This document shows, piece after piece, positions 2,190 to 23,714 of a DNA stretch of 25,839 nt. Each line of letters starts with the position of its first letter. Within the stretch, counting starts at the first letter, position 1. A program made the translations under genes and the position numbers. Source of the stretch: Candidatus Oleincola secundus (GTDB lineage: Bacteria > Atribacterota > Phoenicimicrobiia > Phoenicimicrobiales > Stramentimicrobiaceae). The DNA lies in NCBI GenBank assembly GCA_018400815.1, contig JAGYLS010000019.1, positions 1-25,839 of the forward strand. Reading direction: 5' to 3'. The notes below the pieces were generated by a model. That model had not been told where the DNA came from, ran no database searches, and saw only the letters and a list, made by a program, of their open reading frames with translations.

Positions 2190-2192
2190 TGC

Positions 2193-2444: not shown

Positions 2445-2458
2445 ATTTATCACTCCAA

Positions 2459-2510: not shown

Positions 2511-2530
2511 TTACTTACTAGCATTTTACA

Positions 2531-2604: not shown

Positions 2605-2631
2605 TAAAAATATAAGATGAAAAAAATATGT

Positions 2632-2671
2632 AAAAAACCAGAGAGAGGATATCGCTGAACAATATCCTCTC
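2632..2671 (-). terminator. Rho-independent terminator of the capsule operon
   Basis: Stem GAGAGGATAT (2643-2652) / ATATCCTCTC (2662-2671), followed by a U-rich tract on the minus strand. Confidence 0.7.
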
Positions 2672-2694
2672 GGATTTTGTTGTGAGAATAAAAG

Positions 2695-3423: not shown

Positions 3424-3486
3424 AATAACTTTCTCGCTATTTATTTTTATAATCTATTTATCTTATATTTTTTGTGTCAATAAAAA

Positions 3487-5127
3487 TTATATCTGGGTTT
3501 TCCTGCTATCTATTTTTTTACTTTTTGTTTTCTTGCGTTTACGTCTTTTGACGATATCCTCAAAAGTGACCAAAGGAATTACACCTAAAACCGGTAGCTC
3601 TAAATATTTTTCTACATCATCTTTGCTCTTAAAGGAATAATCAAAAAATTCCATAAAGAATACCAGCATAACACCCAACATGATACCCAGTACTCCCCCA
3701 ATAGCCAGATTTAATAATTTTCTGGGCTTGATAGGATTAGTTGGCACAAGGGCTTGATCAATAATCCTGATATTACCCATTTCCATAGCCTCACTAATCC
3801 GGGCTTCCTGGTAACTCTCTAATAATAGCAGATAGGTATTTTCTGCTACCCGCACTCCTCTTTCCAGGCGGGCTAGTTGTAATTCTTTCTCCGGTAATTG
3901 CTCTAATCTGGTTTCATAATTCTTGATTACTTCAACAGTGCTATTCAGTCTTGCCTCTAATGAAATAATATTACTTTCCAGGGAAACCCTTTCTGAAAGC
4001 AAGTTCTGATAGATAGGGTTCATTGTTGACACGCTGGAACTGATAATCTCAGCAACCTTCTGACTTAATTCATTTTCAATTTGCCGAATCTGGATTTCAA
4101 TTTCAGTTACCTGGGGACTGTTTTCTGAATATCTTTCTTTGAGCGATGGTAGCTGAATCTGCAAATCGACCAATCTATTCTGTAATTGCTGGACAACAGG
4201 ATTTGCAGAAATCGTTTGAGAGGAAACAATAGTTTTTGAATGTTCCTGTAATTGTTTTTTGATTTGTTCCAGACGTACCTGACTACCGGTAATTTGGGTA
4301 TCTAAATCAATTCTTTGTGCTTCATATTTGGCCAGTTGTTCCAGATTCAGTCTGGTTTCTTCATCTAAATAGAGGATGTTCTCTCTCTTTTTAAAGGATA
4401 ATTTTTCTTCTTCCAATTCCCTTAATTCTTTTTCCTGGGAAGCCAGCTGTTTTTCAATAAAACTTTTAGCTGCAGTAGCCTGGGTACGATTAAAAGATCT
4501 GGACTGTTCAACATAGACCTCGGCACTTTTGTTGGCAATATCAGCTGCTAATTCAGGATGAATATTTTCACTGCTTATTTCAATAATATTGGTATCTCTG
4601 ACGAGATTTGCTGATAAAGAATTTCGCACATTGCTTAATATTCTTCTTCTGATCGCCTGTTTATCAGCATCCAGGTTCTCTTCTTCAGCAATATTACTCA
4701 CAAAACCAGCAGCAAACTGTTTTAATCTTAAAAAGTCCAGTATATCGATAAACCAGCGTAATTCATTGACCCTACGCTGAAAATTATCCTTCTCTATGGT
4801 CTGAAACAGGTCCAGTGGAAATTGACTGACAACCTCTTCGGCAATTTTGCGACTCTTAATGATTTCGACTTGTGTTTCAATATTGTCACTTCGTCCCATT
4901 AAAAAGCCCATTTCATTATCACTAAGTAATTGGCCAGGGGAATTATTTTCAGAGATAAGCACCGTGGTTGTCGCTTTATAAACCGGTGCAATGATATAAT
5001 TAGCCAGAAAAGCCAGAAAGAGAGCACTGATAAAAACTAAAAAAATTATCCATTTTCTCTTCCTTATTATTTGAATATATTCCTGTAAGGAAATTTCTTC
5101 ATCTGATTGATTAAATTGTTCTGACAA
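3487..5127 (-). CDS. Polysaccharide co-polymerase / chain-length determinant (GumC/Wzc N-terminal type)
   Basis: EISLQEYIQIIRKRKWII plus TM, long coiled coil, IIDQALVPTNPIKPRK plus C-terminal TM, LPVLGVIP. TTG start after AGGAGG. Confidence 0.93.
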   Translation of the reverse strand: MSEQFNQSDEEISLQEYIQIIRKRKWIIFLVFISALFLAFLANYIIAPVYKATTTVLISENNSPGQLLSDNEMGFLMGRSDNIETQVEIIKSRKIAEEVVSQFPLDLFQTIEKDNFQRRVNELRWFIDILDFLRLKQFAAGFVSNIAEEENLDADKQAIRRRILSNVRNSLSANLVRDTNIIEISSENIHPELAADIANKSAEVYVEQSRSFNRTQATAAKSFIEKQLASQEKELRELEEEKLSFKKRENILYLDEETRLNLEQLAKYEAQRIDLDTQITGSQVRLEQIKKQLQEHSKTIVSSQTISANPVVQQLQNRLVDLQIQLPSLKERYSENSPQVTEIEIQIRQIENELSQKVAEIISSSVSTMNPIYQNLLSERVSLESNIISLEARLNSTVEVIKNYETRLEQLPEKELQLARLERGVRVAENTYLLLLESYQEARISEAMEMGNIRIIDQALVPTNPIKPRKLLNLAIGGVLGIMLGVMLVFFMEFFDYSFKSKDDVEKYLELPVLGVIPLVTFEDIVKRRKRKKTKSKKIDSRKTQI

Positions 5128-5147
5128 TTAAACCCTCCTGTAAATTT

Positions 5148-5330
5148 AATCAATAATCACCAATCTACAATCACTAATCTCCAGTCACTAAATACAAATC
5201 ACCAATTGCCGGTCACCAGTCTACAATCAAGAATAAAAAACAAGAATCAATAATCAAGAATTAATCACTAGTCAAAAACTAAAAAATCAAGAATCACTGA
5301 TCAATAATTAAGAATCAAAAATCAAGAATC
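5148..5330. repeat. Degenerate 7-mer tandem array (AATCAAG/AATCACC), about 25 units
   Basis: aatcaat aatcacc aatctac aatcact aatctcc agtcact ... aatcaaa aatcaag aatc; fills the whole spacer. Confidence 0.85.
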
Positions 5331-5713
5331 TATGACTTTAATTGGAAATCATTGTTTTTTAAATAATGAATAAATCCTGATAATTGCTTTAATATTTTTT
5401 TAGTAAAACTATATAGATTATTAAAATCCACCTTGTCAATATATTTTAAATCAAGAGCAATATACAAATCATTTTGTATTTCAGCAACCGATCCTCTTGC
5501 CATTGATAAAAAATTCGCATAATCTTTGTAAGTAGAACGTTCAAATCCTTCTGCGATATTAGCCATTACAGAAACTGCAGCTCTTCTTATTTGTTGAGAT
5601 AATCCATAATTTTCAATAGTTGGAAAATTTCTTGTTATTTTATAAATGTCAGCTGTTAATTTTCTTGCATCCTGCCAAACTAATAGTTCTTCAAATGATT
5701 TGATTTTCGCCAA
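5330..5713 (-). CDS. Four-helix-bundle protein (TIGR02436 / 23S rRNA IVP family, Avd-like fold)
   Basis: FEELLVWQ, FP..ENYGLSQQIRRAAVSVMANIAEG and ARGSVAE motifs; TTG start after AGGAG. Confidence 0.95.
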   Translation of the reverse strand: MAKIKSFEELLVWQDARKLTADIYKITRNFPTIENYGLSQQIRRAAVSVMANIAEGFERSTYKDYANFLSMARGSVAEIQNDLYIALDLKYIDKVDFNNLYSFTKKILKQLSGFIHYLKNNDFQLKS

Positions 5714-5785
5714 TTGTACTCCTGAACTCCGTAATTTAACTTTTTATTATGCTATATATTTTATAAAAATATAAAAATAATATTA

Positions 5786-5910
5786 TTCGCCAATACCAAT
5801 AAAAAATTACCGATCAAAGATAAATACTAATCGCCAGTCACCAGTCAAGAATCAATAAAAAAATCAAAAATCATAAAATCAAGAAACACTTATCAAGAAT
5901 CAAGAATTCG
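5786..5910. repeat. Degenerate 7-mer tandem array (AATCAAG/AGTCACC)
   Basis: aatcgcc agtcacc agtcaag aatcaat ... tatcaag aatcaag; same orientation as 5148-5330. Confidence 0.8.
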
Positions 5911-5965
5911 TATAAATTCAAAATTTTAAAATCTAAAAACAAAAACTATAAACAAAAAAGGTTTC

Positions 5966-6099
5966 AACTAATTAACTAATTAACCAACGCAACTAATGAA
6001 CTGCATCTTAAACCAATTAACTAATTAACCAATTAACTAATTAACTAATTAACCAATTAACCAACGCAACTAATGAACTAATTAACCAATGAACGATTC
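5966..6099. repeat. 8-mer tandem array AACYAATK, about 14 units in two blocks
   Basis: aactaatt, aaccaatt, aactaatg and aaccaatg units, with two aaccaacgc variants. Confidence 0.92.
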
Positions 6100-6182
6100 A
6101 CAAATCATTACTATATAAGATAGCATAGAAATTGTTTAAGTTTCAACTATTTCGAATAATTATTTTAAATCAATTTATATCA

Positions 6183-7493
6183 CTATTTCAGGACACCATA
6201 AATAGAGATACCGGTTTGGATGATATCCAATGTGGTATCAATATCCAGCTCGGATAATGGCCTGGCTGGTAAATAGACAATGTCCTGTGGTTGGAGAGTA
6301 ATGTTTTGCGCTAAATGCCCATTTTTTAAAATCTCTTTTAAATCCACTTCAATAACCTGGTCATATTCTTCGCGAATAACTTTCACTTCTTTTAGTTCTA
6401 TGGTGCGCATTTCTATTCCCTCTTCATCTTGGGGAAATTTCCTGATAACAAGACACGAACTTAGTCTGGCCTTTTCATTGTAGCCTCCAGCCAAAGAAAT
6501 TGCCTCTACCACAGAACAGGTTCCTTCAATATTATAGAGACCTGGAGTTCTAACTTCACCTAAAACATAAATATTATTTTCTAAAGTCATGGGTATAAAA
6601 AGTGAATCACCATAATTGAGGGCAATATTCTGGGTTAAATCCTGCTCTAAAAGTAAGTTTTCCATATTAACCTGAATTGTTTCGCCATCCTGGCGATTCA
6701 CAACGGCATTTTTTAAATCGGCTCTGGCAGTAAAGCCATTGGCAATAGAAATTGCTTTCAGTATATCAACTTTTCCTTCGAGAGAATACAATCCAGGAGA
6801 ATTAACCTCTCCAGCTACAGAGATGGTATTCATTTCAAAAGCTTTAGGAATAAACAGGGAATCACCGGAATATAGAATTAGATTTTGACTCATATCGCTT
6901 TCATGGAGTAATTTTTCTAAATCAACCGGAATCACTTCTCCACTGTCCCTTATGATTGTTGCATTCTTTAAACCTGCGTTTTCTAAAAGTCCTCCGGCGA
7001 AAGATATCGCTTTTAAAACATTTACTTTTCCTGAAACAGGAAATAATCCCGGTGATTTCACCTCTCCTAATACCGAGATATCGGTGGTGCTAAAATCAAC
7101 AATAGTAAGGCTTACCTGGTTACCCTCTAATGAGGGTAGTACCTTTTCCATTTCCTGGACAATTGCAATACGGACCTCTTCTAAGGTCTTCCCAACAGCA
7201 TATATTTGACCATCAATTGGCAATGACATCATCCCATCCGGTTGAATGGGTACCCTCCTGGTCAATTCCGGATATCCCCATAATTGGATTTCCAGTACAT
7301 CCCGGTAATTCAGGGTATAATCCTGCTTTTGAGTTGTTTCAGCCTCTCCGACAGATTGAGTGTTTGCCAAAACATGGCCTGTTACAAGAAATATCATTAA
7401 TAAGCTTAAAAGAATAATAATTGTGGATTGATAAATCTTATTTGACTTTGACTTAAAATATTTATTTTGCATTATTCTCTCTTCTCCTTTCAC
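6183..7493 (-). CDS. Polysaccharide export protein (Wza/OPX family) with three SLBB domains
   Basis: Signal peptide, Poly_export motif (IQPDGMMSLPIDGQIYAVGKT), three V.GEV..PG repeats. Alternative ATG start at 7472; no lipobox Cys. Confidence 0.92.
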   Translation of the reverse strand: MKGEERIMQNKYFKSKSNKIYQSTIIILLSLLMIFLVTGHVLANTQSVGEAETTQKQDYTLNYRDVLEIQLWGYPELTRRVPIQPDGMMSLPIDGQIYAVGKTLEEVRIAIVQEMEKVLPSLEGNQVSLTIVDFSTTDISVLGEVKSPGLFPVSGKVNVLKAISFAGGLLENAGLKNATIIRDSGEVIPVDLEKLLHESDMSQNLILYSGDSLFIPKAFEMNTISVAGEVNSPGLYSLEGKVDILKAISIANGFTARADLKNAVVNRQDGETIQVNMENLLLEQDLTQNIALNYGDSLFIPMTLENNIYVLGEVRTPGLYNIEGTCSVVEAISLAGGYNEKARLSSCLVIRKFPQDEEGIEMRTIELKEVKVIREEYDQVIEVDLKEILKNGHLAQNITLQPQDIVYLPARPLSELDIDTTLDIIQTGISIYGVLK

Positions 7494-7532
7494 AAAAGAA
7501 GCTTTTCTTTTTTTAAAACTTTTTATTCATTC

Positions 7533-9560
7533 TTAAAATTCATATTTGACTTCAGCGGTAATGCTTATTTGTCCCAGGTCTTCATTTAATTGATTATCCT
7601 GGTTAGAAATAAGTTTATAGGAACCGGATAAGGATAAGTTCCAGTCATCAGAAATATTATATTCTAAATTGGCGAGAAATTCATTTGATTTTTGCACTGT
7701 TCCTGATAGAAAAATATTTTCATTGGCTATATCCGAGTCAGAAGGCAAGGAAATACCGGCCTGCCCTTCTCCATGTCTCTCGTTGATGTAATTTAAATGC
7801 AACAGTGTATCTTCGTTGATCTCATGAGAAATTCCCACTACAATTTGGTCAGCATCCGGCCCTAGGGGGTGACCGATATATTCTCCTTGATATAAATAAT
7901 TTTGCCATTCTTTTCTGGGATGATAGACATAGTTATTGAGGCGAGTATATTCGATAATCAAATCTGTTTTTGCATTATCCATAATATCCGGGATATGGCT
8001 GCCTATGCTGAATCCAACTCTTCCGGGATAAGGATTGACCTGTTGATAAAAAATAAAGTCATCAAACATAACTTCACCATAAATCTTGGCTCCATTATTA
8101 AATTGATATTGCAGGTCTAATCCAATATTATAATTAATATTGTTTTCCTTATCGGAAAGATCAGGGAAATTGGAATAAATCTGCTGGGTTAAATAATTGG
8201 ACAAAGGAAATGGTATGGGATTAAAGTAGAGAATACCACAATTCCGAGCGGCAATAGAAGTTTCCGATAAACCAATACGCCAGGGAGTATCAGGAGAATA
8301 TTCAAAACGCTGGCCAAATAACAGGCGATTATCATCTAGTAAGGAAAATAATTTGCTAAAATGAAGGTTTCCCCAGTTGCCGATTAATTGATCCAGGTCA
8401 AAATTACCGGAATAAGAAATCATGTCCAGTGGCCTGGTTTGGTTTGATAGGATAAGTGAACCGGAATAGCCTGGCCCCCATTTCATTTCATCTCTGCCAA
8501 TTTGCCAGGTTATGGGAGGAATTTCTAATCCATCAAAGGATGCCAATACCGGAATGTTGTCAGAAACGGGTATTTGATAAGCATCGGTTATAAATTTTAG
8601 ATAAGCCTTGTTCAGGTTTAATTCAACTGGTGAAAACTGTATATTTCTTATATCAAAGACCTGGACATCAACAGAAAAATCAGCTAGAAAAGCAGCATTA
8701 TCCCAGATTTCTCCGCTTATTATGGTACCAAATTTCAGATCGTACAAACCTTGATTTAATTTAATGGCTGATGGGCTTATGTTTGGGATATTGTTTTGCC
8801 CCTTAAAACGCAGCTTCTGATTCAAGTATCCCGAAACAGAAATAGTATCTTTTATGCGGTTGAATACGGCTTTCCTTTTATTTAAATAAACAACACTGAC
8901 GCCATAAGAAGCCAGGTCATCTTTTAATTCAGTCACTATATAGTCTAAAGACTCCATCTCCTGTTCAGTCAATTCGACATCTTTCAGTTGACCATCCTGT
9001 AAGTTAAAAATCATCTGACTGACCATTTCGGCTAAAATTCTGCGGGGAATGGGAAACTCTAATTTTCCGGAATGAGAATGGGCAAGATATCCTTTCCGGA
9101 TAAAATCATTGAGGCATTCGGCCATTCTTTCACCCTGGTAATCGTGCAGTATTTCCTGATTTGTCTTTTCCTTCGAAATAATTCTGACACCTTGTCTGCT
9201 CAATTCTTCTTCAAACTCCATGACTAATTTCTCTAAATGAATCAGCTGGGCTTCATCTAAGTCTATTTTTCCCCTCTCAAGATTAATTAAAGCCTGGTTT
9301 ATTAATCTTGCTACTTCCAGACGTGTTAAAGGTCTGGTATTAAGTGCAACCGTAGCTTCTCCCTGCAACAGATTTAAATATTCCATTTTTGCTAATTCAG
9401 TATAAATCCAGCTATCCAGGGGAACATTGATGAATGAGCTTAAATTGGTAGAACCTGGAGCTGCAATGGCAATAAACTGAACAAAGCAGGAAAAACAGAA
9501 TAATATGGACAGAAAAAAGATGTTTCTGGCGACTCTCTTCTTTTGCTTTGCGTTTTTCAT
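7533..9560 (-). CDS. Capsule assembly Wzi-family outer-membrane protein with N-terminal SLH-like repeats
   Basis: GRDEMKWGPGYSGSLILS and IGHPLGPDAD Wzi motifs; C-terminal YEF; N-terminal VPLDSWIY...RPLTRLEVARLI. Confidence 0.85.
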   Translation of the reverse strand: MKNAKQKKRVARNIFFLSILFCFSCFVQFIAIAAPGSTNLSSFINVPLDSWIYTELAKMEYLNLLQGEATVALNTRPLTRLEVARLINQALINLERGKIDLDEAQLIHLEKLVMEFEEELSRQGVRIISKEKTNQEILHDYQGERMAECLNDFIRKGYLAHSHSGKLEFPIPRRILAEMVSQMIFNLQDGQLKDVELTEQEMESLDYIVTELKDDLASYGVSVVYLNKRKAVFNRIKDTISVSGYLNQKLRFKGQNNIPNISPSAIKLNQGLYDLKFGTIISGEIWDNAAFLADFSVDVQVFDIRNIQFSPVELNLNKAYLKFITDAYQIPVSDNIPVLASFDGLEIPPITWQIGRDEMKWGPGYSGSLILSNQTRPLDMISYSGNFDLDQLIGNWGNLHFSKLFSLLDDNRLLFGQRFEYSPDTPWRIGLSETSIAARNCGILYFNPIPFPLSNYLTQQIYSNFPDLSDKENNINYNIGLDLQYQFNNGAKIYGEVMFDDFIFYQQVNPYPGRVGFSIGSHIPDIMDNAKTDLIIEYTRLNNYVYHPRKEWQNYLYQGEYIGHPLGPDADQIVVGISHEINEDTLLHLNYINERHGEGQAGISLPSDSDIANENIFLSGTVQKSNEFLANLEYNISDDWNLSLSGSYKLISNQDNQLNEDLGQISITAEVKYEF

Positions 9561-9587
9561 AGACTAATAAACTCCATTAGAATAATT

Positions 9588-9615
9588 ATCGCACCCGCAT
9601 AGTGGGTGGCTTTAA
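9588..9615. repeat. Dispersed hairpin repeat, copy 1 (IS200/IS605-end-like)
   Basis: ATCGCACCCGCATAGTGGGTGGCTTTAA, 26/28 identical to 21749-21776. Confidence 0.65.
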
Positions 9616-9640
9616 GAAGCATTACCACAATTTCATTATC

Positions 9641-10423
9641 TTAATCATGACTTTCATCTTGATGGTTATCAAGAACAGATATCTTTTTATTTTCTTTTAC
9701 AATACGATTCGAATTCAATATCTTTTCAGGATTTGTGGTAACCAGATCAAGAGCTTTTTCCTGGCCAATGATATGGGATATTTTATGCACACCTTCAGAT
9801 AATATCGGCTTCCGACCGAATTTAGATACCGAATGGGCATCTGTAACCAGGTAGTCAATTAAATTATTTTTTAAAGCCCGCTGGGCAAATAATTGAATTC
9901 CTTTTCCAAAAATACCATTGAGGCTGGCTGAAGTCAATTGACTTTCAATACCTCGGGTATGCCATTTTTCCAATAATTCAAGATTCTGTAAAAAGCCAAA
10001 ACAACGTTCAATATGGGCTATAACAGGGATATAGCCATTTAATTGAAGTTGAAATAAATATTGTTCAATATATGACGACAAGTGGATATCATTAGGAAAT
10101 TCCAAAAGGAGATAAGGAGAGTTATTTAATGTTAATAACTCACCATTTTGTAAATCATTAATCAGTTCTGGATAAAAGTGTATCTCCATTCCCGGCAACA
10201 CCTTTACCGGTATTCTCTCTTCCTTTAATCGTTTATTCAATTGGTTCACAGCAAGTATTATTATTTGAGCATTATTCTGATATACGCCCAGTTTATAATG
10301 AGGAGTTGCAATAATTGCCTTGATTCCATCATTCGAGGCTATCCTGGCAATATCAAGAGCTTCTTCCCAAGTAGCTGGTCCATCATCTAATTTTGGTAAA
10401 ATATGGCAATGTGAATCAATCAA
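9641..10423 (-). CDS. CpsB/CapC-family PHP tyrosine phosphatase
   Basis: IDSHCHILP..DDG, ATPH, AHIER and TDAH metal-binding motifs. Confidence 0.95.
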   Translation of the reverse strand: MIDSHCHILPKLDDGPATWEEALDIARIASNDGIKAIIATPHYKLGVYQNNAQIIILAVNQLNKRLKEERIPVKVLPGMEIHFYPELINDLQNGELLTLNNSPYLLLEFPNDIHLSSYIEQYLFQLQLNGYIPVIAHIERCFGFLQNLELLEKWHTRGIESQLTSASLNGIFGKGIQLFAQRALKNNLIDYLVTDAHSVSKFGRKPILSEGVHKISHIIGQEKALDLVTTNPEKILNSNRIVKENKKISVLDNHQDESHD

Positions 10424-10641
10424 CCTTTTCTCCTGAAATGTAATATTATTATTTTGTATCTTTTAGTATAGCAGTAGTCAGCAGTAATAGAAATATTACC
10501 TTTCTTCGTAAATCTGATTTATATTGAGCTTCTTTTAAAAATAACGACTAAAATAAAAATGATTATTTTAAACGTCAATTTTCAAATAGCTATAAGCATC
10601 AGTCGTTTTTTATTATTTCTCTATATATTATATATAAAGTT

Positions 10642-10671
10642 ATTATATAGGTTCACTAGTATAAAAATCAA
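10642..10671 (-). promoter_or_regulatory. Candidate promoter of the capsule export operon
   Basis: TTGATT, 18 bp, TATAAT on the minus strand. A second extended -10 (TGCTATACT) lies at 10465-10473. AT-rich context lowers specificity. Confidence 0.4.
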
Positions 10672-10703
10672 GTAGTGATTGGAATGGAGGGTAATTTAAA
10701 ATA

Positions 10704-10855
10704 GTGACCAATCACCAATCAAGAAAAAAACAAATAAATAAGAATCAATAATTTCCAATCACCAGTCAAGATAGTAACCAGTATCGTACAAGTATCGAGT
10801 CCAAAATACAAAAAAAGAAGTCGGCCAGTCGAATTATTATCGAGTAGAAATATAA
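10704..10855. repeat. Mosaic of 7-mer repeats (AATCACC/AATCAAG and AGTATCG types)
   Basis: TCACCAGTCAAGA at 10759-10771 is identical to 5838-5850. AGTATCG units at 10780-10797. TATCGAGTAGAAATATAA at 10838-10855 is repeated at 12480-12497. Confidence 0.75.
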
Positions 10856-10906
10856 AAAAGATTCGAGGTGCTAGGTGCGAATAAAAAAACAAGAAAACTG
10901 AAAACT

Positions 10907-10988
10907 CCCCTCTCCCCTCGGAGGGAGAGGGTTAGGTATTTTTTAAGTGGATGAAAATTGCTTCGTCGCTGCGCTCACCGAAATGAAA
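10907..10988. repeat. Adjacent REP-like elements: type A (CCCTCTCCC/GGGAGAGGG hairpin) and degenerate type B (TTGCTTCGTCGCT...AATGA)
   Basis: 9-bp perfect stem at 10908-10931. Type B is similar to 13546-13582 and 14633-14667. Confidence 0.75.
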
Positions 10989-11122
10989 TAATAGTATATA
11001 GTATTCTGTCATAGCATATACCGTAAAATAAAAAAGTTGCCGGTTTTCGGTAAAATATTTGAAGCAATGATAAATATTAAATTTAAGAACAAAAAAAGAA
11101 AAATCATTAAAGTTTTTTAATA

Positions 11123-11776
11123 CTATAAATCATTTTTATTTTCTAATTGTTGGTTGAAATATCCAGAGGATAAAGTTATGAGGTCTTTTTTTATTTCACT
11201 CCAGGAATAATGATATTTTACTCCCTCTGGAGTTTCTTCTTCTTCAGCATCCTTAAAATAAGTTAACGCCTTTAAAGTCACAGATTCTGAAAAAGATGAG
11301 CCATATTTATTTTTGCAAAAAGAAAATATATCATTAAGAGAATATTCTGTTTCTTTTATAATTGTCCATAGATCAATAAAGTCTTTCTTCAGGCCTCTTT
11401 GCACTATTGATATCAGCTTCATGGCAGAAATATCTTCTATAGAGGAAATTTGTATACCATTTTCAGATAAGAATGGTTTTAATAATGGATAATTATAATA
11501 GAAAAATGAAGTTTGTATAGTTTTTAATAATACAATTAGGGTATCTTCTTTCATTTCCACTAAGGACAACTGTTCTTCTTGAAAATAATTATTTAATTCA
11601 TTTGTTATTTTTATAGGTGAAAATTCTGATTCAGAAAAGAAATCAAAGTCAATAGATTTTCTATGACCTAATATCAGTGCAAGTCCTGTGCCACCGGCAA
11701 GGTAAAAAGACTTATTTGATAGGAGTAATTTCTTTAATATTTCCAATAACTCTTGCTGTTCTTTGGAAAGTATCAT
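11123..11776 (-). CDS. AbiEii/AbiGii-family nucleotidyltransferase toxin
   Basis: FYLAGGTGLAL..GHRKSIDFDFF, AMKL and RG..KDFIDL motifs. Probable start ATG 11776 (ORF track extends to 11821). Confidence 0.92.
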   Translation of the reverse strand: MILSKEQQELLEILKKLLLSNKSFYLAGGTGLALILGHRKSIDFDFFSESEFSPIKITNELNNYFQEEQLSLVEMKEDTLIVLLKTIQTSFFYYNYPLLKPFLSENGIQISSIEDISAMKLISIVQRGLKKDFIDLWTIIKETEYSLNDIFSFCKNKYGSSFSESVTLKALTYFKDAEEEETPEGVKYHYSWSEIKKDLITLSSGYFNQQLENKNDL

Positions 11777-12017
11777 CAAATCCACAATAAATCCTCCACC
11801 AGTTAAATGTTCTATTATCAAGTTTATAACTATAATGCCTTAAAATATTTTCAATTCCTTTTTTATCGATTTTTTTTATAAGCCATGACCACTCATATAT
11901 GTTTCCATATTTTAATATCCGCGATATCAACTCAGGGGAATTTAAGAATTTTTCTTCAGAGATATTTTTTTCGCCATATTCCCAGCTAAATTTTCTTAAA
12001 TTTATATTTTTATTCAT
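11712..12017 (-). CDS. DUF6922-like putative antitoxin partner of AbiEii
   Basis: FSWEY...ISRILKYGNIYEWSWL pattern; overlaps the toxin start. Start is 12017 or 12062. Confidence 0.75.
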   Translation of the reverse strand: MNKNINLRKFSWEYGEKNISEEKFLNSPELISRILKYGNIYEWSWLIKKIDKKGIENILRHYSYKLDNRTFNWWRIYCGFDDTFQRTARVIGNIKEITPIK

Positions 12018-12087
12018 AAACCAGAATGTCCCTGTACCGTTCTCGTCTTTAGCTTCATTCATAATAGAAAGTTGAATAGCTAATTTG

Positions 12088-12116
12088 ATTATAGTTAATG
12101 CAATTTAATTAGTCAA
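12088..12116 (-). promoter_or_regulatory. Sigma70-type promoter of the AbiE-like pair
   Basis: TTGACT, 17 bp, TATAAT. Confidence 0.65.
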
Positions 12117-12144
12117 AAAATGTTGCAAGATGATAATCGGTAGC

Positions 12145-12468
12145 TTCACCCCCACCTTAGTCCTCCCCCCTCAAGGGGGAGGAGATGAGAAGAGGCAGTC
12201 CTTCCCTCAAGGGGGAGGATATGACAGGAATAAATCCATTCTTCAAGAGGGAGGAAATGAGAAGGGATAATTATTCCCTCAAGGGGGAGGAAGTAAAAGG
12301 ATAGTTAATCCATCCGCAAGGGGGAGGAAATTAGTGAGCTAAATCTTCCCACAAGGGGTTGGAAATAATAAAATGTAATCCTTACCTCAAGTGGGGAAAT
12401 GAAAAAAGATAATCCTTTGCATGATAGGGAGGAAATGAGATTAGTCTATCCTTCTCTAAAGGGAGAAA
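12145..12468. repeat. Tandem array of nine ~36-bp hairpin units (REP-like type A)
   Basis: Core TCCYYCCCTCAAGGGGGAGGA; loop positions 12171, 12207, 12243, 12279, 12316, 12351, 12387, about 12421 and 12457. Confidence 0.9.
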
Positions 12469-12638
12469 CAAAAGAAGAGTATCGAGTAGAAATATAATTG
12501 ATTTAACCAACACATAGGTAACACTTTGATTCAGTAAATAGGTTACAATGTTTACACTTACTATTATTCAGCTACAGTATAAAATGATTGAAATATTAAA
12601 TAAATTCATGATATGGGAAGCCATTATATTATTGACTT

Positions 12639-12992
12639 TTAGCTTTGCTGATCTTTGAAAACCTCTAAAATATGTTCCTTGAAAGATTGTAAATTATTTT
12701 GCAATGTATCCCAAACAGCTTCAACATCGATTCCAAAGTAATCATGAATTAATACATTTCTAAAGCCTGTTGCTTCTTTCCATTCAACTTTTGGGTATTT
12801 TTCTTTAACATCTTCAGGTATATTTTTTGTTGCTTCACCTATTACCTCAAAATTTCTAATAACAGCATCTATTACCATTTCATTTTTTGAAAATTTATGA
12901 AAATCCATATTCTGAGTATAGTTTTCTATTTTTTCAATAGCATTTATGATATCTTCTAAATATAACAGGTAATCTCTTGAACGATTACACAT
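12639..12992 (-). CDS. HEPN (DUF86/HepT-like) ribonuclease toxin
   Basis: DAVIRNFEVIGEA and Rx4H motif RNVLIHDY; ATG at 12992 overlaps the MNT stop. Confidence 0.95.
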   Translation of the reverse strand: MCNRSRDYLLYLEDIINAIEKIENYTQNMDFHKFSKNEMVIDAVIRNFEVIGEATKNIPEDVKEKYPKVEWKEATGFRNVLIHDYFGIDVEAVWDTLQNNLQSFKEHILEVFKDQQS

Positions 12993-13284
12993 ATTGGACC
13001 TCATTAAAGATTTTTTCTTTTAATCTTGGTTTTACTGCATCTTTTATTACCAAATCAACTTCTTTTCCTAATAGATCTTCAAGGTAATTCTTCAACCTCA
13101 TATAATTAAAAAAATCTTTATGACCTTTATTAAAACTAACCAATATATCTATATCACTATCTTCATGAATAAAATGCCCACCCTTGGCAAAAGATCCAAA
13201 AACTCCTATTTCTTTTACTTGATATTTTTTCTTTATGTGGTTAACATTAGCATTTAATTTTTTCTTTATTTCAATAATATCCAT
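12985..13284 (-). CDS. Minimal nucleotidyltransferase (MntA-like) antitoxin
   Basis: FGSFAKG...DSDIDIL and LGKEVDLV motifs. Confidence 0.93.
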   Translation of the reverse strand: MDIIEIKKKLNANVNHIKKKYQVKEIGVFGSFAKGGHFIHEDSDIDILVSFNKGHKDFFNYMRLKNYLEDLLGKEVDLVIKDAVKPRLKEKIFNEVQYV

Positions 13285-13604: not shown

Positions 13605-15197
13605 TTAGCCTCTGCCAATACCATAATACTTAAAATCAAGTTTTTTTATTTTTTCAGGATTATACAGATTTTTCATATCAAAGATGAAAGGTTGGAAATA
13701 TAAGCCATATTCATGTCTTTTCATCAATAGTTTTATTTTATTAAAATCAAGATTACGGAACTGATCCCATTCAGTGAGGATGACTAAGGCATCGGCATCT
13801 TTTGCTGTTTCATATTCATCCTGACAATAGGTTAGTTCTGGCATTATTTTTTTGGTTTTCTCCATTGCCCTCGGGTCAAAACATTGAATCATGGCACCTT
13901 TTTCTAAAAGCATTTGAATTATATCAAGAGCAGCAGATTCACGGATATCATCTGTATTTTGTTTAAAGGCTAGACCTAAAATGCCAATTTTTTTATTGTT
14001 AAGATTTCTCATTTCTTTTTCAATTTTGTCTACTACTATTTTTCTTTGTCGCATATTAACCTCTATTACTGCGTTTAATAATTTAAAATCATACTTTGCA
14101 TTACTGGCAATGACATGTAAAGCCCTGGTATCTTTTGGAAAACAGGACCCTCCATAACCCGGTCCCGGATGCAGGAATTTAGGGCTTATGCGTCCATCCA
14201 TACCCATGGCTTTGGCAATCTGGTGCACATCTGCGCCTACCCTGTCACAAAGGTTGGCAATTTCATTGATAAAGGTAATCTTGGTTGCCAGAAATGCATT
14301 GCAGGCATATTTAATCATTTCTGCTGTCTCTAAAGTTGTAAATACAAAGGGTGTATCAAGAAGATATAAAGGACGATAAATTTCCTGTATGATTTGTTTG
14401 GCTTTTTCTGATTCATAACCAATAACTATTTTATTGGGATGGGTAAAGTCATATACAGCTGAACCTTCACGGAGGAATTCGGGATTGGAAATGATGTCGA
14501 AAGGATGGTTCACCCTCACCCTGCCCTCTCCCCTCAAGGGAGAGGGATTATTTGAAGAATCTCTTCTCAAGTTAGAGGGGGTATTTGAAAAATCTCCCCT
14601 CAAGGGAGAAGATGATGATGAAGAGGAAAACTGAGATTGCTTCGTCGCTTCGCTCCTCGCAATGACAGGAGGATGGTAATCCTCGCAATGACCAGAAAAA
14701 GAAGGGTCCTCGCAATGACCATGAGCAGAATGCTTCTCGGAATGACCGGGAGACGAAGTCTCCACATGATGACGGGGAGGAATTTGATTTTCGGTGATAA
14801 TTTGTTTGATTTTTCGGGCGGTACCTACCGGGACGGTGCATTTGTTTACAATAACCTTGTATTCATTCATATAACTGGCAATTTCTCTGGCAACCTCTTC
14901 TACCTGTTTCATACAGGCAGACCCATCATGATTAGATGGCGTACCTACGGCAATATAAATTACCTGGGATTCTTCAACTGCTTTTTTCAGTTCTGTCGTG
15001 AAACTAAGTCGTTTTTCTTCAACATTTTTTTTTATAAGTTCTTCCAGATTTGGTTCATGGATAGGGACACTGCCATTGTTTAGTAATTGGATTTTTTCTT
15101 TATCATTATCCACACAGGTAACTGATAATCCAAAATTTGCCAGGCAAGTACCGGTTACAAGGCCAACGTAGCCCGTACCGATTATTAATATGTTCAT
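13605..15197 (-). CDS. ugd: UDP-glucose 6-dehydrogenase with a ~91-aa in-frame repeat-derived insertion
   Basis: GTGYVG, SNPEFLREG, KYACNAFLATKI, catalytic GGSCFPKD, AFKQNTDDIRES. ATG 15197 follows GAGAGG. Confidence 0.95.
   Translation of the reverse strand: MNILIIGTGYVGLVTGTCLANFGLSVTCVDNDKEKIQLLNNGSVPIHEPNLEELIKKNVEEKRLSFTTELKKAVEESQVIYIAVGTPSNHDGSACMKQVEEVAREIASYMNEYKVIVNKCTVPVGTARKIKQIITENQIPPRHHVETSSPGHSEKHSAHGHCEDPSFSGHCEDYHPPVIARSEATKQSQFSSSSSSSPLRGDFSNTPSNLRRDSSNNPSPLRGEGRVRVNHPFDIISNPEFLREGSAVYDFTHPNKIVIGYESEKAKQIIQEIYRPLYLLDTPFVFTTLETAEMIKYACNAFLATKITFINEIANLCDRVGADVHQIAKAMGMDGRISPKFLHPGPGYGGSCFPKDTRALHVIASNAKYDFKLLNAVIEVNMRQRKIVVDKIEKEMRNLNNKKIGILGLAFKQNTDDIRESAALDIIQMLLEKGAMIQCFDPRAMEKTKKIMPELTYCQDEYETAKDADALVILTEWDQFRNLDFNKIKLLMKRHEYGLYFQPFIFDMKNLYNPEKIKKLDFKYYGIGRG
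14508..14780. repeat. Intragenic composite repeat: three 33-bp type A units plus five 26-27-bp type B units
   Basis: TCTCCCCTCAAGGGAGA units at 33-bp spacing; TCCTCGCAATGAC at 14654, 14680 and 14707, degenerate copies at 14734 and 14761. Confidence 0.9.
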
Positions 15198-15220
15198 CGT
15201 AATACCTCTCAAATGCAATT

Positions 15221-15901: not shown

Positions 15902-16430
15902 TTAACTAAACCAGAGAGCTATTTCTTTTTTTGCTTCCTGTTTATTGCCAGATGCATGAACTAAATTTTGTATAGACCTCTTTTGTTTGTCGGCAAAATC
16001 CGGTGAATCCAGAGAATAATCCCCTCTTATTGTTCCCAGTTCAGCAAAAACAGGAACCGTATTTCCGACTAACTTTCTCACCACTTCGACAGCATGATTG
16101 CCGCTTATGACAATTGCAACTACCGGACCGGAGACAACATATTGAATAAGCCATTTTCTTATTTTTTCCAATCTCCAGGGCATCATCAGTTCCTAAATCA
16201 TCTATTAGATTTAAATTGTATTTCTGATAGGTTTTTATGGTCTTTTCACCAACTAATTCTAACCATTCTTCATCATCCGGATAATGCCTTTCAACAATCT
16301 CTTTGGTCGGTTTTATTAGTTTCATTTTTTCCAACTTCAGACCTACTCTTTCAAACCTGGCAATAATTTCCCCCGTTAAGCGCCTTTTAAATGCATCCGG
16401 CTTTATTAAAACTAATGTTTTTTCTATCAT
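15902..16430 (-). pseudogene. ndk: Nucleoside diphosphate kinase split by a frameshift
   Basis: The N-terminal frame has EKTLVLIKPDA; the second frame has SGPVVA, GTIRGD and NLVHAS (catalytic His). The frames switch at an A6 run (16162-16167). Confidence 0.88.
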
Positions 16431-16662: not shown

Positions 16663-16692
16663 TTGATTTTCAGCAATTAAGTCAGATATAAT
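16663..16692 (+). promoter_or_regulatory. Candidate promoter for the riboswitch leader
   Basis: TTGATT, 18 bp, TATAAT about 40 bp upstream of P1. Confidence 0.55.
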
Positions 16693-16731
16693 ATTAACAG
16701 TCCTTTGAAATTATTATTTACCTTTGAACCA

Positions 16732-16897
16732 TTAAGGTAGAGGAGCAGTACAAAATAAGTACAGACAATATAATTTTAATCTTTGTTCTGGAAAGGTTTG
16801 TCTGCCGAAGCAGAAAAATATTTCGTTTCTGCTGGGCTTATAGCAAAAAGCTATAAGACTGTCATCTTACTTAAAAGTATGATGGAGCGCTACTTAA
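16732..16897 (+). ncRNA. Lysine riboswitch (L-box) aptamer
   Basis: Ordered hallmarks GTAGAGGAGC, AGTA, GAAAGG, GCCGAA, TGGG, ACTGTCA, TGGAGCGCTAC. P1 TTAAGGTAG/CTACTTAA; P3 to P5 hairpins visible. Confidence 0.93.
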
Positions 16898-16937
16898 GGA
16901 ATAAAGTGCTTTATCATACTATATATTAGACAAAGAT

Positions 16938-16983
16938 AAAAAGACAATTGATGAAGACTTTATTCATCAATTGTCTTTTTTTT
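16938..16983 (+). terminator. Leader terminator of the lysine riboswitch
   Basis: AAAAAGACAATTGATGAA, 7-nt loop, TTCATCAATTGTCTTTTT plus T tract. Confidence 0.9.
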
Positions 16984-17058
16984 ATTCTCATTGGTAAGAA
17001 TCACTATTTCATATTTCCATTAATCAATTAATAAAAATATATTCATGGAGGTTGTTTT

Positions 17059-18306
17059 ATGAAAGTTCTGGTCTTTGGTGGATCAGGCAAAATGGGTTCT
17101 ACCGTTGCCTGGGATTTAGCTAATAACAGTAATGTTGGTCAGGTTGGAATTATTGGCATAGCCGGTCGAAAAGAAGATTCCTTAGAATATGTAAAAAAGT
17201 GGATTAACAGCAAGAAAATTGTTTCCCATGTTATGGACATTAACCAACGGGAAGAAACACAAAAGATAATGAGACAGTATGATGTAGGCGCAATTGCCCT
17301 TCCCGATCGAAAATCCAGTTATAAGGTTGTAGAAATGGCCATTGAAGTAGGCCTTGATATTGTTGATATCCTTGAAGAATATCATCGCAAACCAGATGCT
17401 TACGAAATTGAAGGGCTAAAAATTCCTTCCGGGATGAAACTTGAGGAATATGGTGAATATCTGCATCAACAAGCTATTGATAAAGGAGTTACTTTTGTAG
17501 ACGGAATTGGTTTTGCCCCGGGAATTACTAATTTTACACTGGGAGAAGGCATTAGAAAAATGGATCAGGCTGAATCTGCTATTGCCCGCTGTGGTGGAAT
17601 TCCCTCTCAGGAATGTAATAAAAAACATCCTTTAAGGTATATGATAACCTGGGCTTTCGACCATGTACTGCGGGAATATATGATAAAAGTCAATATACGT
17701 AAAGATGGCAAAATAATTGAAACAAATGCTATGAGCGAACTGGAAAAATTTAAATTTAATCAACTTGGTGTTAATGAAGAATTAGAATGTGCTATTACTC
17801 CTGGTATGCCCAGTTTCCTATATACCCGGCCAAATGTACGAGAATGTTTAGAGAAAACTATTCGTTGGCCTGGCCACTGGGAAGGAATTGAAGTCTTGAA
17901 AGATTGTGGCATGCTTAGTACTGAGCCGATTGAATTTAAAGGATGCATGATTTCTCCCCGAGAGTTTTTATGCCAGGTCATTACACCACAACTAAAACCT
18001 CAAAAGGGAGAAACAGATATTTGTGTTATGTGGAATAGTGTGACCGGTTTAAAGGATGGGAAAAAGACCAGAATCAATTATTATATGTGGGAAGGTGCAG
18101 ATACTCGAAACAATATTTCTGCAATGGGGCGAGTGACTGCCTTTACCGAATCTATCGCTGCAATGATGTTGGGCAATGGTGACATCAAGCAAAAAGGAAT
18201 TGTGGCACCAGAAGATGCTTTTTCCGGAGAAAATTACCAAAAAATAATTAAAGAGCTTAACAAAAGAGATATCAATATTCTGGAAATCGAAGAAGAATTA
18301 TCTTAA
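17059..18306 (+). CDS. Saccharopine dehydrogenase family protein, lysine 6-dehydrogenase-like
   Basis: Rossmann GGSGKMG, GFAPGITN, CGGIP, EKTIRWPGH; GGAGG RBS; lysine riboswitch upstream. Confidence 0.85.
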   Translation: MKVLVFGGSGKMGSTVAWDLANNSNVGQVGIIGIAGRKEDSLEYVKKWINSKKIVSHVMDINQREETQKIMRQYDVGAIALPDRKSSYKVVEMAIEVGLDIVDILEEYHRKPDAYEIEGLKIPSGMKLEEYGEYLHQQAIDKGVTFVDGIGFAPGITNFTLGEGIRKMDQAESAIARCGGIPSQECNKKHPLRYMITWAFDHVLREYMIKVNIRKDGKIIETNAMSELEKFKFNQLGVNEELECAITPGMPSFLYTRPNVRECLEKTIRWPGHWEGIEVLKDCGMLSTEPIEFKGCMISPREFLCQVITPQLKPQKGETDICVMWNSVTGLKDGKKTRINYYMWEGADTRNNISAMGRVTAFTESIAAMMLGNGDIKQKGIVAPEDAFSGENYQKIIKELNKRDINILEIEEELS

Positions 18307-18320
18307 TCTAATCATAAAAT

Positions 18321-19667
18321 CTAAGCTAGGGAGCCCATCGGATCCCATGGTTCTAATTTTATGGGGGTTTTTTCTAAGGCAGCTAAATACTCCTGAGAAA
18401 GATATTTTTTATTCACAACTACCTGGTACATAAATTGATCAAACCATTTATCGCTCATTACAAAAAATCCATCTTTACCATTTTCTTTCCCCCAACTATT
18501 TTCTACCTTCCATCTATTCGGGCCATTCTCTAAAATATTTACTCCTGTAAAAACCATGGCATGGGTAAGAGAACTATCTCCATAATTTACTCTATCCGCC
18601 TTGGTTAAATTGAAAGCAGTATTTAATACTTCTTCGTAATTATAAATGCTTGAATCCATAATCCCTGACTTTCTTTCTAACATTTGACCTACATCACAGC
18701 CAAACCAGACTGTTTCTCCGTTTTTTAATTGGGATATGGTTAATTTTTTTAATTCGTCAATTTTAAGGTTCAGATACAGTACTTCTCTGCCTTCTTTTAC
18801 ATTTCCCAGATATTTTACAGTGTAGGTTTTGCCAAAAGGTTTATCCTTAGTAGGACAATTAATGATACTTATATAGTCCTCAACCTGCACAGAAGAGTAT
18901 TTCTTATAAAATCCCAAAGGGGTAAGATTCCTATCCCGGTAAAAGTTATTTTTCTTATCTCTATATTCAAAATCAAAAACTTTTGGTGGTTCTCCAAAAA
19001 AATGACAAAGAAGAGCATAAAATTCTTTAATCATCCCTTCTTTTCTATCCCTTAAATCTCTTTCTTCCTTCTCTTTTAATTCTTCTCGCAGCACTTTAGC
19101 ATATTCCCTTAGTTTCAAATTTAATATCTTATTCATCAAAGAAGAATCACTACTATGGTAAGATTCAGGCATAACATATTTTGGAATAATACCGTATTTC
19201 TCAACCAAATTCACAAACATATCCCATTGACCGCCATCTATCATGGCATTATTTAAAAGCCACATTACCAGACGACTATTAATTTTTTCTCTTCTTGTTT
19301 CAATGATAGATTCTAAAAAATAATTGGCTTTTTCTAATTTATCCCAAAACATTAGATAAGCCTGGGAAAGCTCAAATCCCTCCTTTTCGCCAATATTTAA
19401 ATTTAGTTTTTGGGCAATAGCATAGCGTATTTTATTTAAACCAGCAAACATCCAACATCTCCCGGACTTTTTCTGATTAGTGATCATCCCGGTTTTTATC
19501 TCTTCCGAAAAAGTATGCTGCATTTTAATAATTGAATCACGATTTAGAGCTATATTGTTAATCCCATTTTTAATAATTGCATCACTTATGATTTTACTTC
19601 TCAAGTTTTTAGAATAATCTTTGGAAAAATCACTTAATAATTTTTTAGAAATATCTTTATCTTTCAT
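18321..19667 (-). CDS. pepC: Aminopeptidase C / bleomycin hydrolase (peptidase C1B)
   Basis: QKKSGRCWMFA, HAM, VENSWG and C-terminal WDPMGSLA. Confidence 0.95.
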   Translation of the reverse strand: MKDKDISKKLLSDFSKDYSKNLRSKIISDAIIKNGINNIALNRDSIIKMQHTFSEEIKTGMITNQKKSGRCWMFAGLNKIRYAIAQKLNLNIGEKEGFELSQAYLMFWDKLEKANYFLESIIETRREKINSRLVMWLLNNAMIDGGQWDMFVNLVEKYGIIPKYVMPESYHSSDSSLMNKILNLKLREYAKVLREELKEKEERDLRDRKEGMIKEFYALLCHFFGEPPKVFDFEYRDKKNNFYRDRNLTPLGFYKKYSSVQVEDYISIINCPTKDKPFGKTYTVKYLGNVKEGREVLYLNLKIDELKKLTISQLKNGETVWFGCDVGQMLERKSGIMDSSIYNYEEVLNTAFNLTKADRVNYGDSSLTHAMVFTGVNILENGPNRWKVENSWGKENGKDGFFVMSDKWFDQFMYQVVVNKKYLSQEYLAALEKTPIKLEPWDPMGSLA

Positions 19668-22033: not shown

Positions 22034-22870
22034 ATGTTAAAAGAATACTATATACTCAGCCGTCCGTTTAATGCCCTTTCAGGCTGTGTTGTCGTTATTT
22101 TAAGCGGTTACGTTGCCGGAGCAACCGCATGGTGGCCGGTTATTATGGCTGCAATAACAGTATTATTAATTACATCATCCACCAATGCCTGGAATGACTA
22201 TATCGATATTGAAATCGATAAGATAAATAAGCCGGACCGACCACTACCCGCCGGTCTAATCAGCCCACGCGGAGCTTTGACTTTTGCTATTGTTGGCTCA
22301 ATCCTTTCATTGATAACTGCAATTTTTGTTAGTCAAACCGGTTTTTTAATCGCTCTTGGTGCTAATATTCTTCTTTATATCTATTCCTGGAAATTGAAGT
22401 GTACAGTCCTGCTGGGTAATGCAACTGTAGCTACTATTGTTGCCCTTTGCTTTATTTTCGGCGGTGTTGCAGCCGGCAATGTTCAGCCTACCGTTATGCT
22501 TGCCATTTCAGCGTTTTTTGCCATGATAGGAAGAGAAATTCTTTTAACAATGGCTGATTACAAGGGTGATTTGCAGCAAGGCTGTAACACAATATCTACG
22601 GTTTGGGGTAAAAAAGTTGCTGGAATTTTTGTAGTAATTTTTTTAGGAATTTCTGCTGCAACGATGATCCTCACTTACTTTACCAATCAGTACAATCCTG
22701 TCTATCTATATCTGGTAATCTTCATAATGTGCCCCATTTTTGCCTACATTGCCTTAAACGCAAAGAAAAATGCCGATATCAAGATATTAGAACAAAGCAG
22801 CATATTAATGAAATGCAGTTATTTTGTCTGGTTTTTGGCTATAGCATTAGGCTCTGGATTGATGGCTTGA
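22034..22870 (+). CDS. UbiA-family prenyltransferase, DGGGP-synthase-like
   Basis: RP.N, NDYIDIEIDKINKPDRPLPAG, YSWKLK...GN, REI...DYKGD; multiple TM segments. Confidence 0.85.
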   Translation: MLKEYYILSRPFNALSGCVVVILSGYVAGATAWWPVIMAAITVLLITSSTNAWNDYIDIEIDKINKPDRPLPAGLISPRGALTFAIVGSILSLITAIFVSQTGFLIALGANILLYIYSWKLKCTVLLGNATVATIVALCFIFGGVAAGNVQPTVMLAISAFFAMIGREILLTMADYKGDLQQGCNTISTVWGKKVAGIFVVIFLGISAATMILTYFTNQYNPVYLYLVIFIMCPIFAYIALNAKKNADIKILEQSSILMKCSYFVWFLAIALGSGLMA

Positions 22871-22931
22871 AAATTAATAGGATAAAATTCAGCATTGTTA
22901 ATTGTTATATTCTTTTAATATAGTTACTACT

Positions 22932-23714
22932 TCAGGTAAGCAATTCCAAATAGTAAATAATCATTGTCGAAGCAATGGGAACGGTAAGATCATCCAATAC
23001 TGACGGAGAAAACAGCTCGACCAAAGTTCCCGTTAAACTCGTAATCATTGAATAGACAAAGACCAGTTCAAGTGTTAAAATCTTTTGATTAATGGGATTA
23101 CTTAATCCATAAAAATAAAATGCTGAGAAGCATAATATAAATGCAGAAATAAAAAAAGTTAATGAACCCTCGAGCGTCCGCTGAGAACCTGTATAAGCAA
23201 GAGCCAATTTAATCTTACCATACTTTTTGCCAATTAATGATGCCAATGTATCACTGATAATCATAATCAAAATTCCGCAGATAGGAAAATAAAACTTATC
23301 AGGTGCAAAAACAGCAAAAATGGTAATTAACACCGTTATTGAGATACTATAGTGAAACGGTCCTTGTAAACGACCAATGATTTCTTCAGCTTCTTCACCG
23401 ATTGATTCATATAACTCCTTCAGCTGTCTGACAGAACTATCCCGGGAGCTAAAATAGACAACGATAGTCATGCTCAAAGAAATAAAAACTGCATGTAGTG
23501 GCAAGATAAAAAAAGGAACAATCAATATTACCAGACCTGTACATAGATGGACTATCTTTCGGGCAATGAATTTAGAAACCATATTTTTCTTCTTTAGATA
23601 AACAGGTACTATGATAGTGACAAACATGTAACCATAGGCAATTCCAATGAGGACTAAATCGGAAAGAAAATCAGCCTTTGTGTAGCTTTTAATTATTTCG
23701 ATGAGTGTGCTCAT
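22932..23714 (-). CDS. CTP-dependent polyprenol (phytol/dolichol) kinase family membrane protein
   Basis: RKIVH, DTLASLIGKKYGK, RTLEGS and DDLTVP motifs. Confidence 0.85.
   Translation of the reverse strand: MSTLIEIIKSYTKADFLSDLVLIGIAYGYMFVTIIVPVYLKKKNMVSKFIARKIVHLCTGLVILIVPFFILPLHAVFISLSMTIVVYFSSRDSSVRQLKELYESIGEEAEEIIGRLQGPFHYSISITVLITIFAVFAPDKFYFPICGILIMIISDTLASLIGKKYGKIKLALAYTGSQRTLEGSLTFFISAFILCFSAFYFYGLSNPINQKILTLELVFVYSMITSLTGTLVELFSPSVLDDLTVPIASTMIIYYLELLT

Follow-up and report, generated by a model that had tools for sequence, protein, structure and literature searches.

We report a lysine riboswitch with an expression platform predicted to act as a transcriptional ON switch for a gene likely encoding L-lysine 6-dehydrogenase, in a stretch of 25,839 nucleotides from Candidatus Oleincola secundus (hereafter, the window). 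We give this reading as a whole a probability of about 0.7; the ON logic taken alone, as drawn from modeled folds, appears very probable. A preliminary description of the same DNA had proposed that lysine binding frees an antiterminator and thereby activates transcription, and this proposal is supported both by predicted folding and by conservation among related leaders.

The aptamer is the only Rfam match in the window and aligns at full length with the lysine family RF00168 (model positions 1-182; 101.9 bits with the covariance model, against a threshold of 30; E 2.3e-26), in agreement with its earlier identification. Its P1 helix consists of 6 contiguous bp (16735-16740 with 16890-16895). 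All the junction core motifs (AGAGG-GC, loop E, GAAAGG, GCCGAA, CUGGG, ACUGUCA and UGGAG-GCU) are present. P2b and P3 are short and there are no G-C loop-loop pairs, the best L2-L3 complement being 3 A-U pairs in a rough scan with loops taken from predicted folds. The candidate promoter is weak by itself, since 17 sites of such strength were found vs. 12.4 expected; its hexamers are conserved in 3/3 close relatives examined, and the leader would start near 16699. The gene begins 76 nt past the U-tract and stands alone, with ndk diverging upstream and a C1 peptidase gene converging downstream. Translational control was considered and ruled out, as the Shine-Dalgarno sequence lies about 65 nt beyond the terminator (Table 1).

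Table 1. Coordinates, in the window, of the predicted elements of the leader and of the gene behind it.
Feature	Positions	Strand	Remarks
Candidate sigma70-type promoter TTGATT-18-TATAAT	16663..16692	+	10/12 consensus match
Lysine riboswitch aptamer (RF00168)	16730..16900	+	Rfam
Helix 3 (anti-antiterminator)	16876..16920	+	aptamer 3′ strand 16876-16891 : linker 16905-16920; predicted ligand-free state
Antiterminator	16899..16965	+	linker ("inverter" strand) 16899-16916 : 16949-16965; predicted ligand-bound state
Intrinsic terminator	16938..16983	+	stem 16938-16980, core 16943-16975, U-tract 16976-16983
Shine-Dalgarno GGAGG	17047..17051	+	7 nt before ATG; well clear of switch helices
415-aa saccharopine-dehydrogenase-superfamily enzyme, likely L-lysine 6-dehydrogenase	17059..18306	+	
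Terminator-like hairpin 3′ of dehydrogenase gene	18343..18366	+	consensus match only

Three mutually exclusive helices had been described in this leader, and all three were recovered in our calculations. The terminator (16938-16955 with 16963-16980; 18 bp, hairpin -21.5 kcal/mol) is the top site in a terminator scan, its probable working stem (-16.8) being followed by U8. The antiterminator (17 bp with a single bulge and one G-U; hairpin -16.1) lies, as had been noted, entirely 3′ of P1; the last position of P1 is 16895. Helix 3 (16 bp, 3 G-U; hairpin -20.8) takes up the P5 3′ strand, J5/1 and the top of P1. The exclusion, however, is only pairwise, between helix 3 and the antiterminator and between the antiterminator and the terminator; helix 3 and the terminator can coexist and together make up the OFF state. 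As a control for chance, the 40-nt linker (16898-16937) was dinucleotide-shuffled 5000 times. The real pairing was equaled in 1/5000 shuffles for the aptamer 3′ strand, in 0/5000 for the terminator 5′ arm and in 0/5000 for both at once.

We then compared 57 distinct leaders, grouped by downstream gene: 22 precede the dehydrogenase gene, 2 precede L-lysine 6-transaminase and the other 33 stand before lysA, lysC, a transporter or one further ORF, or run into a contig end. Each leader was folded as a nascent transcript ending with the terminator loop, either freely or with the aptamer barred from pairing (locked), as a mimic of the ligand-bound state. Leaving out L112, whose terminator was mislocated, and L123, whose contig ends before the terminator, gave 31 paralogous leaders for this count. 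The terminator 5′ arm was more sequestered when the aptamer was locked, i.e. behaved as in an ON switch, in 23/24 dehydrogenase or transaminase leaders (L018 alone scoring the wrong way) and in none of the 31 paralogous leaders, 28 of which folded in the opposite, OFF, direction and 3 of which were neutral. The locked block was set by each leader's own P1 length; a fixed block of 3 nt past the aptamer gave the same direction, with noise among the OFF leaders because their P1 is longer.

In the window leader, sequestration of the terminator 5′ arm was 1.00 vs. 0.19 (respectively, locked and free). Snapshots of its growing transcript had the antiterminator as best fold from 16958 to 16970 in the locked state, and helix 3, then the terminator, in the free state. 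The antiterminator is thus, in the computed folds, compatible with a folded aptamer and excluded in the free state, as expected of an ON switch. The pairing typical of lysC-type OFF switches, between the aptamer 3′ strand and the terminator 5′ arm, was found in the paralogues and not in the window (mean -15.3 vs. -5.4 kcal/mol). The two groups were also separated, with no overlap, by the duplex energy of the aptamer 3′ strand with the linker (-22.6 to -35.9 in the 24 ON leaders vs. -11.8 to -19.5 in the 31 paralogous leaders).

The 24 distinct leaders before the dehydrogenase or transaminase keep the same layout. Absence of helix 3 and the antiterminator from homologous leaders had been named beforehand as an observation that would speak against the switch; both are conserved. 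In an alignment of 25 rows (the 24 folded leaders and L005, which is cut at its 5′ end and was used for alignment only), the share of paired cells was 93% of 400 for helix 3, 89% of 385 for the antiterminator and 97% of 349 for the terminator, compared to 12-57% over all three helices, and 29-50% for the first two, when the partner strand was slid. Compensatory changes occur at 3 pairs of helix 3, 2 of the antiterminator and 6 of the terminator. Those in helix 3 and the antiterminator fall nearly all on one split (5 vs. 20 sequences), and their number was not above that in shuffles (336/500 and 486/500, respectively). Conservation is strong and covariation modest, reflecting few events.

The 415-aa enzyme matches PF03435 and PF16653 above cut-off and has the fold of the saccharopine dehydrogenase superfamily; no curated NCBIfam model matches it. 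Its closest solved relative is 3ABI, the L-lysine dehydrogenase of P. horikoshii (PH1688), at 25% identity. 3ABI was well ahead of saccharopine reductase in a sequence search (E 1.5e-29 vs. 3e-12) and of the next match in a profile search (3.7e-107 vs. 7.5e-56). It also ranked first in a fold search, followed closely by carboxyspermidine (E 9e-27) and saccharopine (7e-26) dehydrogenases; the input was an alignment-based AlphaFold model with a pLDDT of 97, a single-sequence model reaching only 39. The enzyme is thus nearer to lysine dehydrogenase than to these two, by a wide margin in sequence and a narrow one in fold, with one characterized lysine dehydrogenase in the comparison. The motifs GFAPG and RWPGH are common to the enzyme and 3ABI and absent from saccharopine reductases in the printed alignments, and "lysine 6-dehydrogenase" is the automatic JGI name of 7 of the 15 members listed for the nearest cluster. 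A plasmid collection held only distant matches with generic names.

The best functional argument for the enzyme is its exchange with L-lysine 6-transaminase (LAT) behind the same leader. LAT (TIGR03251, 637 bits vs. a cut-off of 520.8) follows such a leader in two genomes, G079 and G082. It is found in 3/52 genomes of the order, the third copy being cut by a contig end. In G082, LAT occupies the locus where sister genomes carry the dehydrogenase, and the genome has no match to the dehydrogenase orthologue; in G079 both genes are present, each behind an ON-type leader. LAT and lysine 6-dehydrogenase yield the same product. That of the dehydrogenase is stated in the accessible part of PMC7253579. 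The preliminary description had reasoned from the ON logic that the downstream enzyme is catabolic, and the LAT leaders provide independent support for this idea. Given ON logic, lysine is the probable substrate.

An ON switch could also be real and the enzyme act on something else, such as ornithine, saccharopine, a polyamine precursor or another lysine-derived amine, with lysine merely signaling plentiful peptides or basic amino acids. The low identity to 3ABI and the near-equal fold scores of carboxyspermidine and saccharopine dehydrogenases would be in keeping with this, as would a second, 378-aa paralogue in relatives of the sister family, which is nearer to 3ABI (E 2.5e-69) and encoded upstream of the riboswitch, outside its regulon. 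In the same family, the dehydrogenase is followed by genes for a GabT-like omega-aminotransferase, a P-loop protein and an NhaC-type transporter, with an aldehyde oxidoreductase-like gene as well in G024, and these could serve arginine or ornithine. The label arginine-synthetase-like for the P-loop protein comes from a weak match to cyclic 2,3-diphosphoglycerate synthetase together with the accessible part of PMC11032458. We nevertheless consider a different substrate unlikely, given the exchange with LAT, the two motifs shared with 3ABI and the automatic names.

The genome of the window, which we take to be a JS1-type Atribacterota from record names, has three lysine riboswitches. Besides the window leader, an OFF-type leader on C192 (G000:C192:7842-8029) precedes lysA and further diaminopimelate (DAP) pathway genes, with lysC and dapA homologues behind it, and a leader on C152 precedes an NhaC-type transporter (family names tested on orthologues). 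When no more than one change is allowed, the terminator motif G(A/G)CAAU(U/C)(G/A)AUG is present in 23/24 ON and 30/32 OFF leaders; a looser form has 5 matches in the window's genome, 4 of them at the three riboswitch terminators. With the two classes sharing a terminator family, a rewired linker is likely to have flipped the logic. We infer that a leader was duplicated with its terminator and its linker then rewired.

The ON aptamers are set apart by a fully supported branch, in an unrooted tree that does not give the order of events. They are about 11 nt shorter than OFF aptamers, with a shorter P2b and P1 (mean 5.8 bp vs. 8.9 bp in local OFF paralogues), and each core motif is kept in 21-24 of the 24, a partly circular count since the motifs served to find the leaders. 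G-C pairs between L2 and L3 are lacking in 22/24 ON leaders vs. two or more in 27/33 OFF leaders (rough scan, predicted loops). For B. subtilis lysC, the accessible part of PMC3082890 describes the L2-L3 contact as important, both to how the RNA folds and to its regulation. The ON aptamer is possibly weaker and later to respond; the same features could also mean that it works poorly. It is plausible, at only slightly under even odds, that the trimmed, A-U-rich periphery sets a higher lysine threshold.

Two further observations concern this group of leaders. In sister-family leaders (L009-L020, L213-L217, L242-L245), linker:aptamer pairing is stronger, to -35.9, and by eye extends into the L5 loop (a C-rich loop and a downstream G run), which could be a toehold; the window leader lacks this extension. 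On C152 (G000:C152:5092-10988, L002), NhaC transporter, arginine-synthetase-like and aldehyde-oxidoreductase genes lie behind an OFF-type lysine leader; their sister-family orthologues follow an ON leader and the dehydrogenase, and would thus be under the opposite predicted logic, unless there is an internal promoter.

In the full-length RNA, locking the aptamer does not keep the terminator from winning (P 0.94 for the window and above 0.8 for 13/24 ON leaders), and helix 3 is far stronger than the P5 that it displaces (-20.8 vs. -6.8). The switch must therefore be kinetic, as is usual for transcriptional riboswitches. Helix 3 starts only about 10 nt after P1, meaning that lysine must bind within a short time. 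We propose that when lysine is scarce, linker 16905-16920 would invade the nascent aptamer 3′ strand to make helix 3; with the linker consumed, the terminator would form. When lysine is plentiful, the aptamer would close before the linker emerges and its 3′ strand would be protected, leaving the free linker to capture the 5′ arm and loop of the terminator ahead of synthesis of its 3′ arm, and the polymerase would read through. Lysine would thus have to bind before about 16920 leaves the polymerase, and formation of the antiterminator would have to precede nucleation of the terminator. The enzyme would then oxidize surplus lysine to 2-aminoadipate semialdehyde / piperideine-6-carboxylate, and synthesis would meanwhile be shut off by the OFF paralogues on the DAP operon.

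The energy gap between helix 3 and P5/P1 and the preference for the terminator at equilibrium could also describe a nearly constitutive attenuator, in which helix 3 always wins or the trimmed aptamer, some 11 nt shorter and without its G-C kissing pairs, binds too weakly; the gene would then be mostly off or answer to another ligand, a protein or polymerase speed. We think this quite improbable: it would leave conservation of the antiterminator without a reason, and the aptamer core is kept throughout the ON class, with the circularity mentioned above. Small shares (0.06-0.17) were present in 8 RNA runs, and the four libraries compared in detail all have contigs of related strains, with one contig covering 16826-16944 and carrying a foreign tail; these are contigs only, which say nothing on transcript ends or levels and are not proof of transcription.

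Returning to the ON switch, the window's genome makes lysine by the DAP route (lysA, lysC and dapA homologues on C192) and the dehydrogenase is therefore not needed for its synthesis. No lysine-ketoglutarate reductase partner was seen in this genome; the sole AlaDh_PNT_N match, cut by a contig end, looks like an alanine dehydrogenase beside an alanine-symporter-like gene. Candidates for the next step are proC, which would give pipecolate, and six aldehyde:ferredoxin oxidoreductase matches, which would give aminoadipate; a search of this 86%-complete genome yielded no aldehyde dehydrogenase. A lysine 2,3-aminomutase-like gene (G000:C186:6851-7693, L259; 512 bits over 283 positions) is truncated at a contig end, has no lysine riboswitch there and represents a second lysine-using route.

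That the leader is an ordinary OFF switch on a gene for saccharopine-type lysine synthesis, with helix 3 and the antiterminator incidental, is very improbable: repression is the rule for most lysine riboswitches, and homoaconitase-like and homoisocitrate-dehydrogenase-like genes do lie just upstream in the sister family, as in the aminoadipate route, but these genes are not behind the riboswitch, the window's genome has no homoisocitrate-dehydrogenase match at 86% completeness and has DAP synthesis genes under an OFF leader of their own, pairing of the window's aptamer 3′ strand to the terminator arm is poor compared to OFF paralogues, and none of the shuffled linkers reproduced both helices.

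The upstream genes of the sister family form a conserved block (L218:156-5641, L247:2886-8980) encoding an HD-like protein, homoaconitase-like large and small subunits, a homoisocitrate-dehydrogenase-like protein, a PrpD-family protein and a 3ABI-like dehydrogenase; in G028 (L223), the dehydrogenase and PrpD-like genes are one 754-aa ORF. Together they might encode an aminoadipate-type route that operates in one direction or the other.

The nearest named homologues of the enzyme are in Atribacterota genomes (94% and 91%). Orthologues (E 1e-60 or better) were found in 21/86 genomes of the phylum, all in the window's own order. That of G004, a 98%-complete genome, has no riboswitch in the 862 nt upstream, and G016 offers too little upstream DNA to judge. 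The enzyme's clade spans Atribacterota, Chloroflexota, Zixiibacteriota, Acidobacteriota and Thermoplasmata. For homologues from beyond Atribacterota, neither scanning 156 protein-anchored loci for the motifs nor applying Rfam to 15 such loci revealed a lysine aptamer, and no neighbor was recurrent, the largest family being present at 5/69 loci, so that gene context was of no use there.

Other observations concern genes elsewhere in the window. Upstream of the leader, the nucleoside-diphosphate kinase gene (15902-16430, minus strand) is split in two frames, with 2 bases fewer than an intact 175-aa relative in L133, and is either a pseudogene or an assembly error. The UDP-glucose 6-dehydrogenase gene (13605-15218, minus strand) has an in-frame insertion of about 90 codons (14505-14786), which consists partly of palindromic, dispersed repeat elements; the frame is kept, and parts of the insertion have matches at 11 further genomic sites. 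A capsule export cluster (1776-13284; Wzi, Wza-like, chain-length and tyrosine kinase/phosphatase genes) is interleaved with toxin-antitoxin-like pairs (AbiEii, HepT with a nucleotidyltransferase, PIN) and a four-helix 23S rRNA IVP protein. Finally, two convergent genes at 22034-23714 encode a UbiA-family prenyltransferase, with archaeal-type PRK12884 and DGGGP synthases as its best models, below cut-off, and a membrane protein without Pfam match that resembles phytol/dolichol kinase, a possible isoprenoid-lipid pair in a bacterium.

At somewhat under even odds, these steps can be joined in one scenario. In JS1 Atribacterota, a lysine riboswitch and its terminator may have been duplicated together, and one copy turned to ON through a single strand that pairs alternately with aptamer or terminator, the trimmed loop-loop contact raising its threshold. 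One cell would then read lysine at two set-points, with synthesis off at the low one and 6-deamination, by dehydrogenase or, interchangeably, transaminase, on at the high one. The leader is short, its three-helix logic is clean and OFF paralogues with the same terminator lie in the same genome, so that the ON logic and its evolution can be tested together. If the prediction is true, the leaders would be a natural matched OFF/ON pair showing how riboswitch logic inverts, and the window leader possibly the first natural lysine-ON switch to be tested, as no bench test of one was found in the literature searched. Through its regulation, the leader also provides an argument as to what a widespread but unannotated clade of dehydrogenases does, and it suggests that lysine breakdown is regulated in a lineage that abounds in anoxic sediments.

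In a literature with few subscription journals, we found no publication on a lysine riboswitch with lysine dehydrogenase, nor on Atribacterota with riboswitches. What is known is that lysine-activated riboswitches are predicted for lysine-fermentation genes; what is new is this target, not linked to a riboswitch in the literature searched. PH1688/3ABI is the best sequence, profile and fold match of the enzyme and has the same two motifs; the enzyme, with a predicted activity, differs in its 25% identity, some 50 additional residues and a separate clade. Rodionov et al. (2003) reportedly predicted activating lysine elements. The accessible part of PMC5584792 describes positive regulation for lysine riboswitches that precede kal and kce, which are catabolic genes, in Clostridium sticklandii, Fusobacterium nucleatum and Thermoanaerobacter; saccharopine or lysine dehydrogenase is mentioned nowhere in that text. 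The window leader is like these in the predicted positive regulation of a catabolic gene by a lysine riboswitch, and unlike them in its target, 6-deamination (dehydrogenase/transaminase) instead of fermentation to acetate, and in its phylum. With the OFF-type L box (RF00168, B. subtilis lysC) it shares a five-way-junction aptamer, an intrinsic terminator and, by prediction, a ligand-stabilized P1, as far as these are described in the accessible part of PMC3082890. Unlike the lysC type, it has the opposite predicted output, an extra linker strand between aptamer and terminator, a shorter P1 and no G-C L2-L3 pairs. Zhou and Zeng (2015) are said to have engineered lysine-ON riboswitches. The accessible part of PMC10974012 treats natural lysine riboswitches as repressors, and metabolic engineers there had to build ON versions (the Lys-A series). 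In both these switches and, by prediction, the window leader, lysine raises expression; the engineered ones were selected from mutant libraries of OFF switches, whereas the one in the window is natural.
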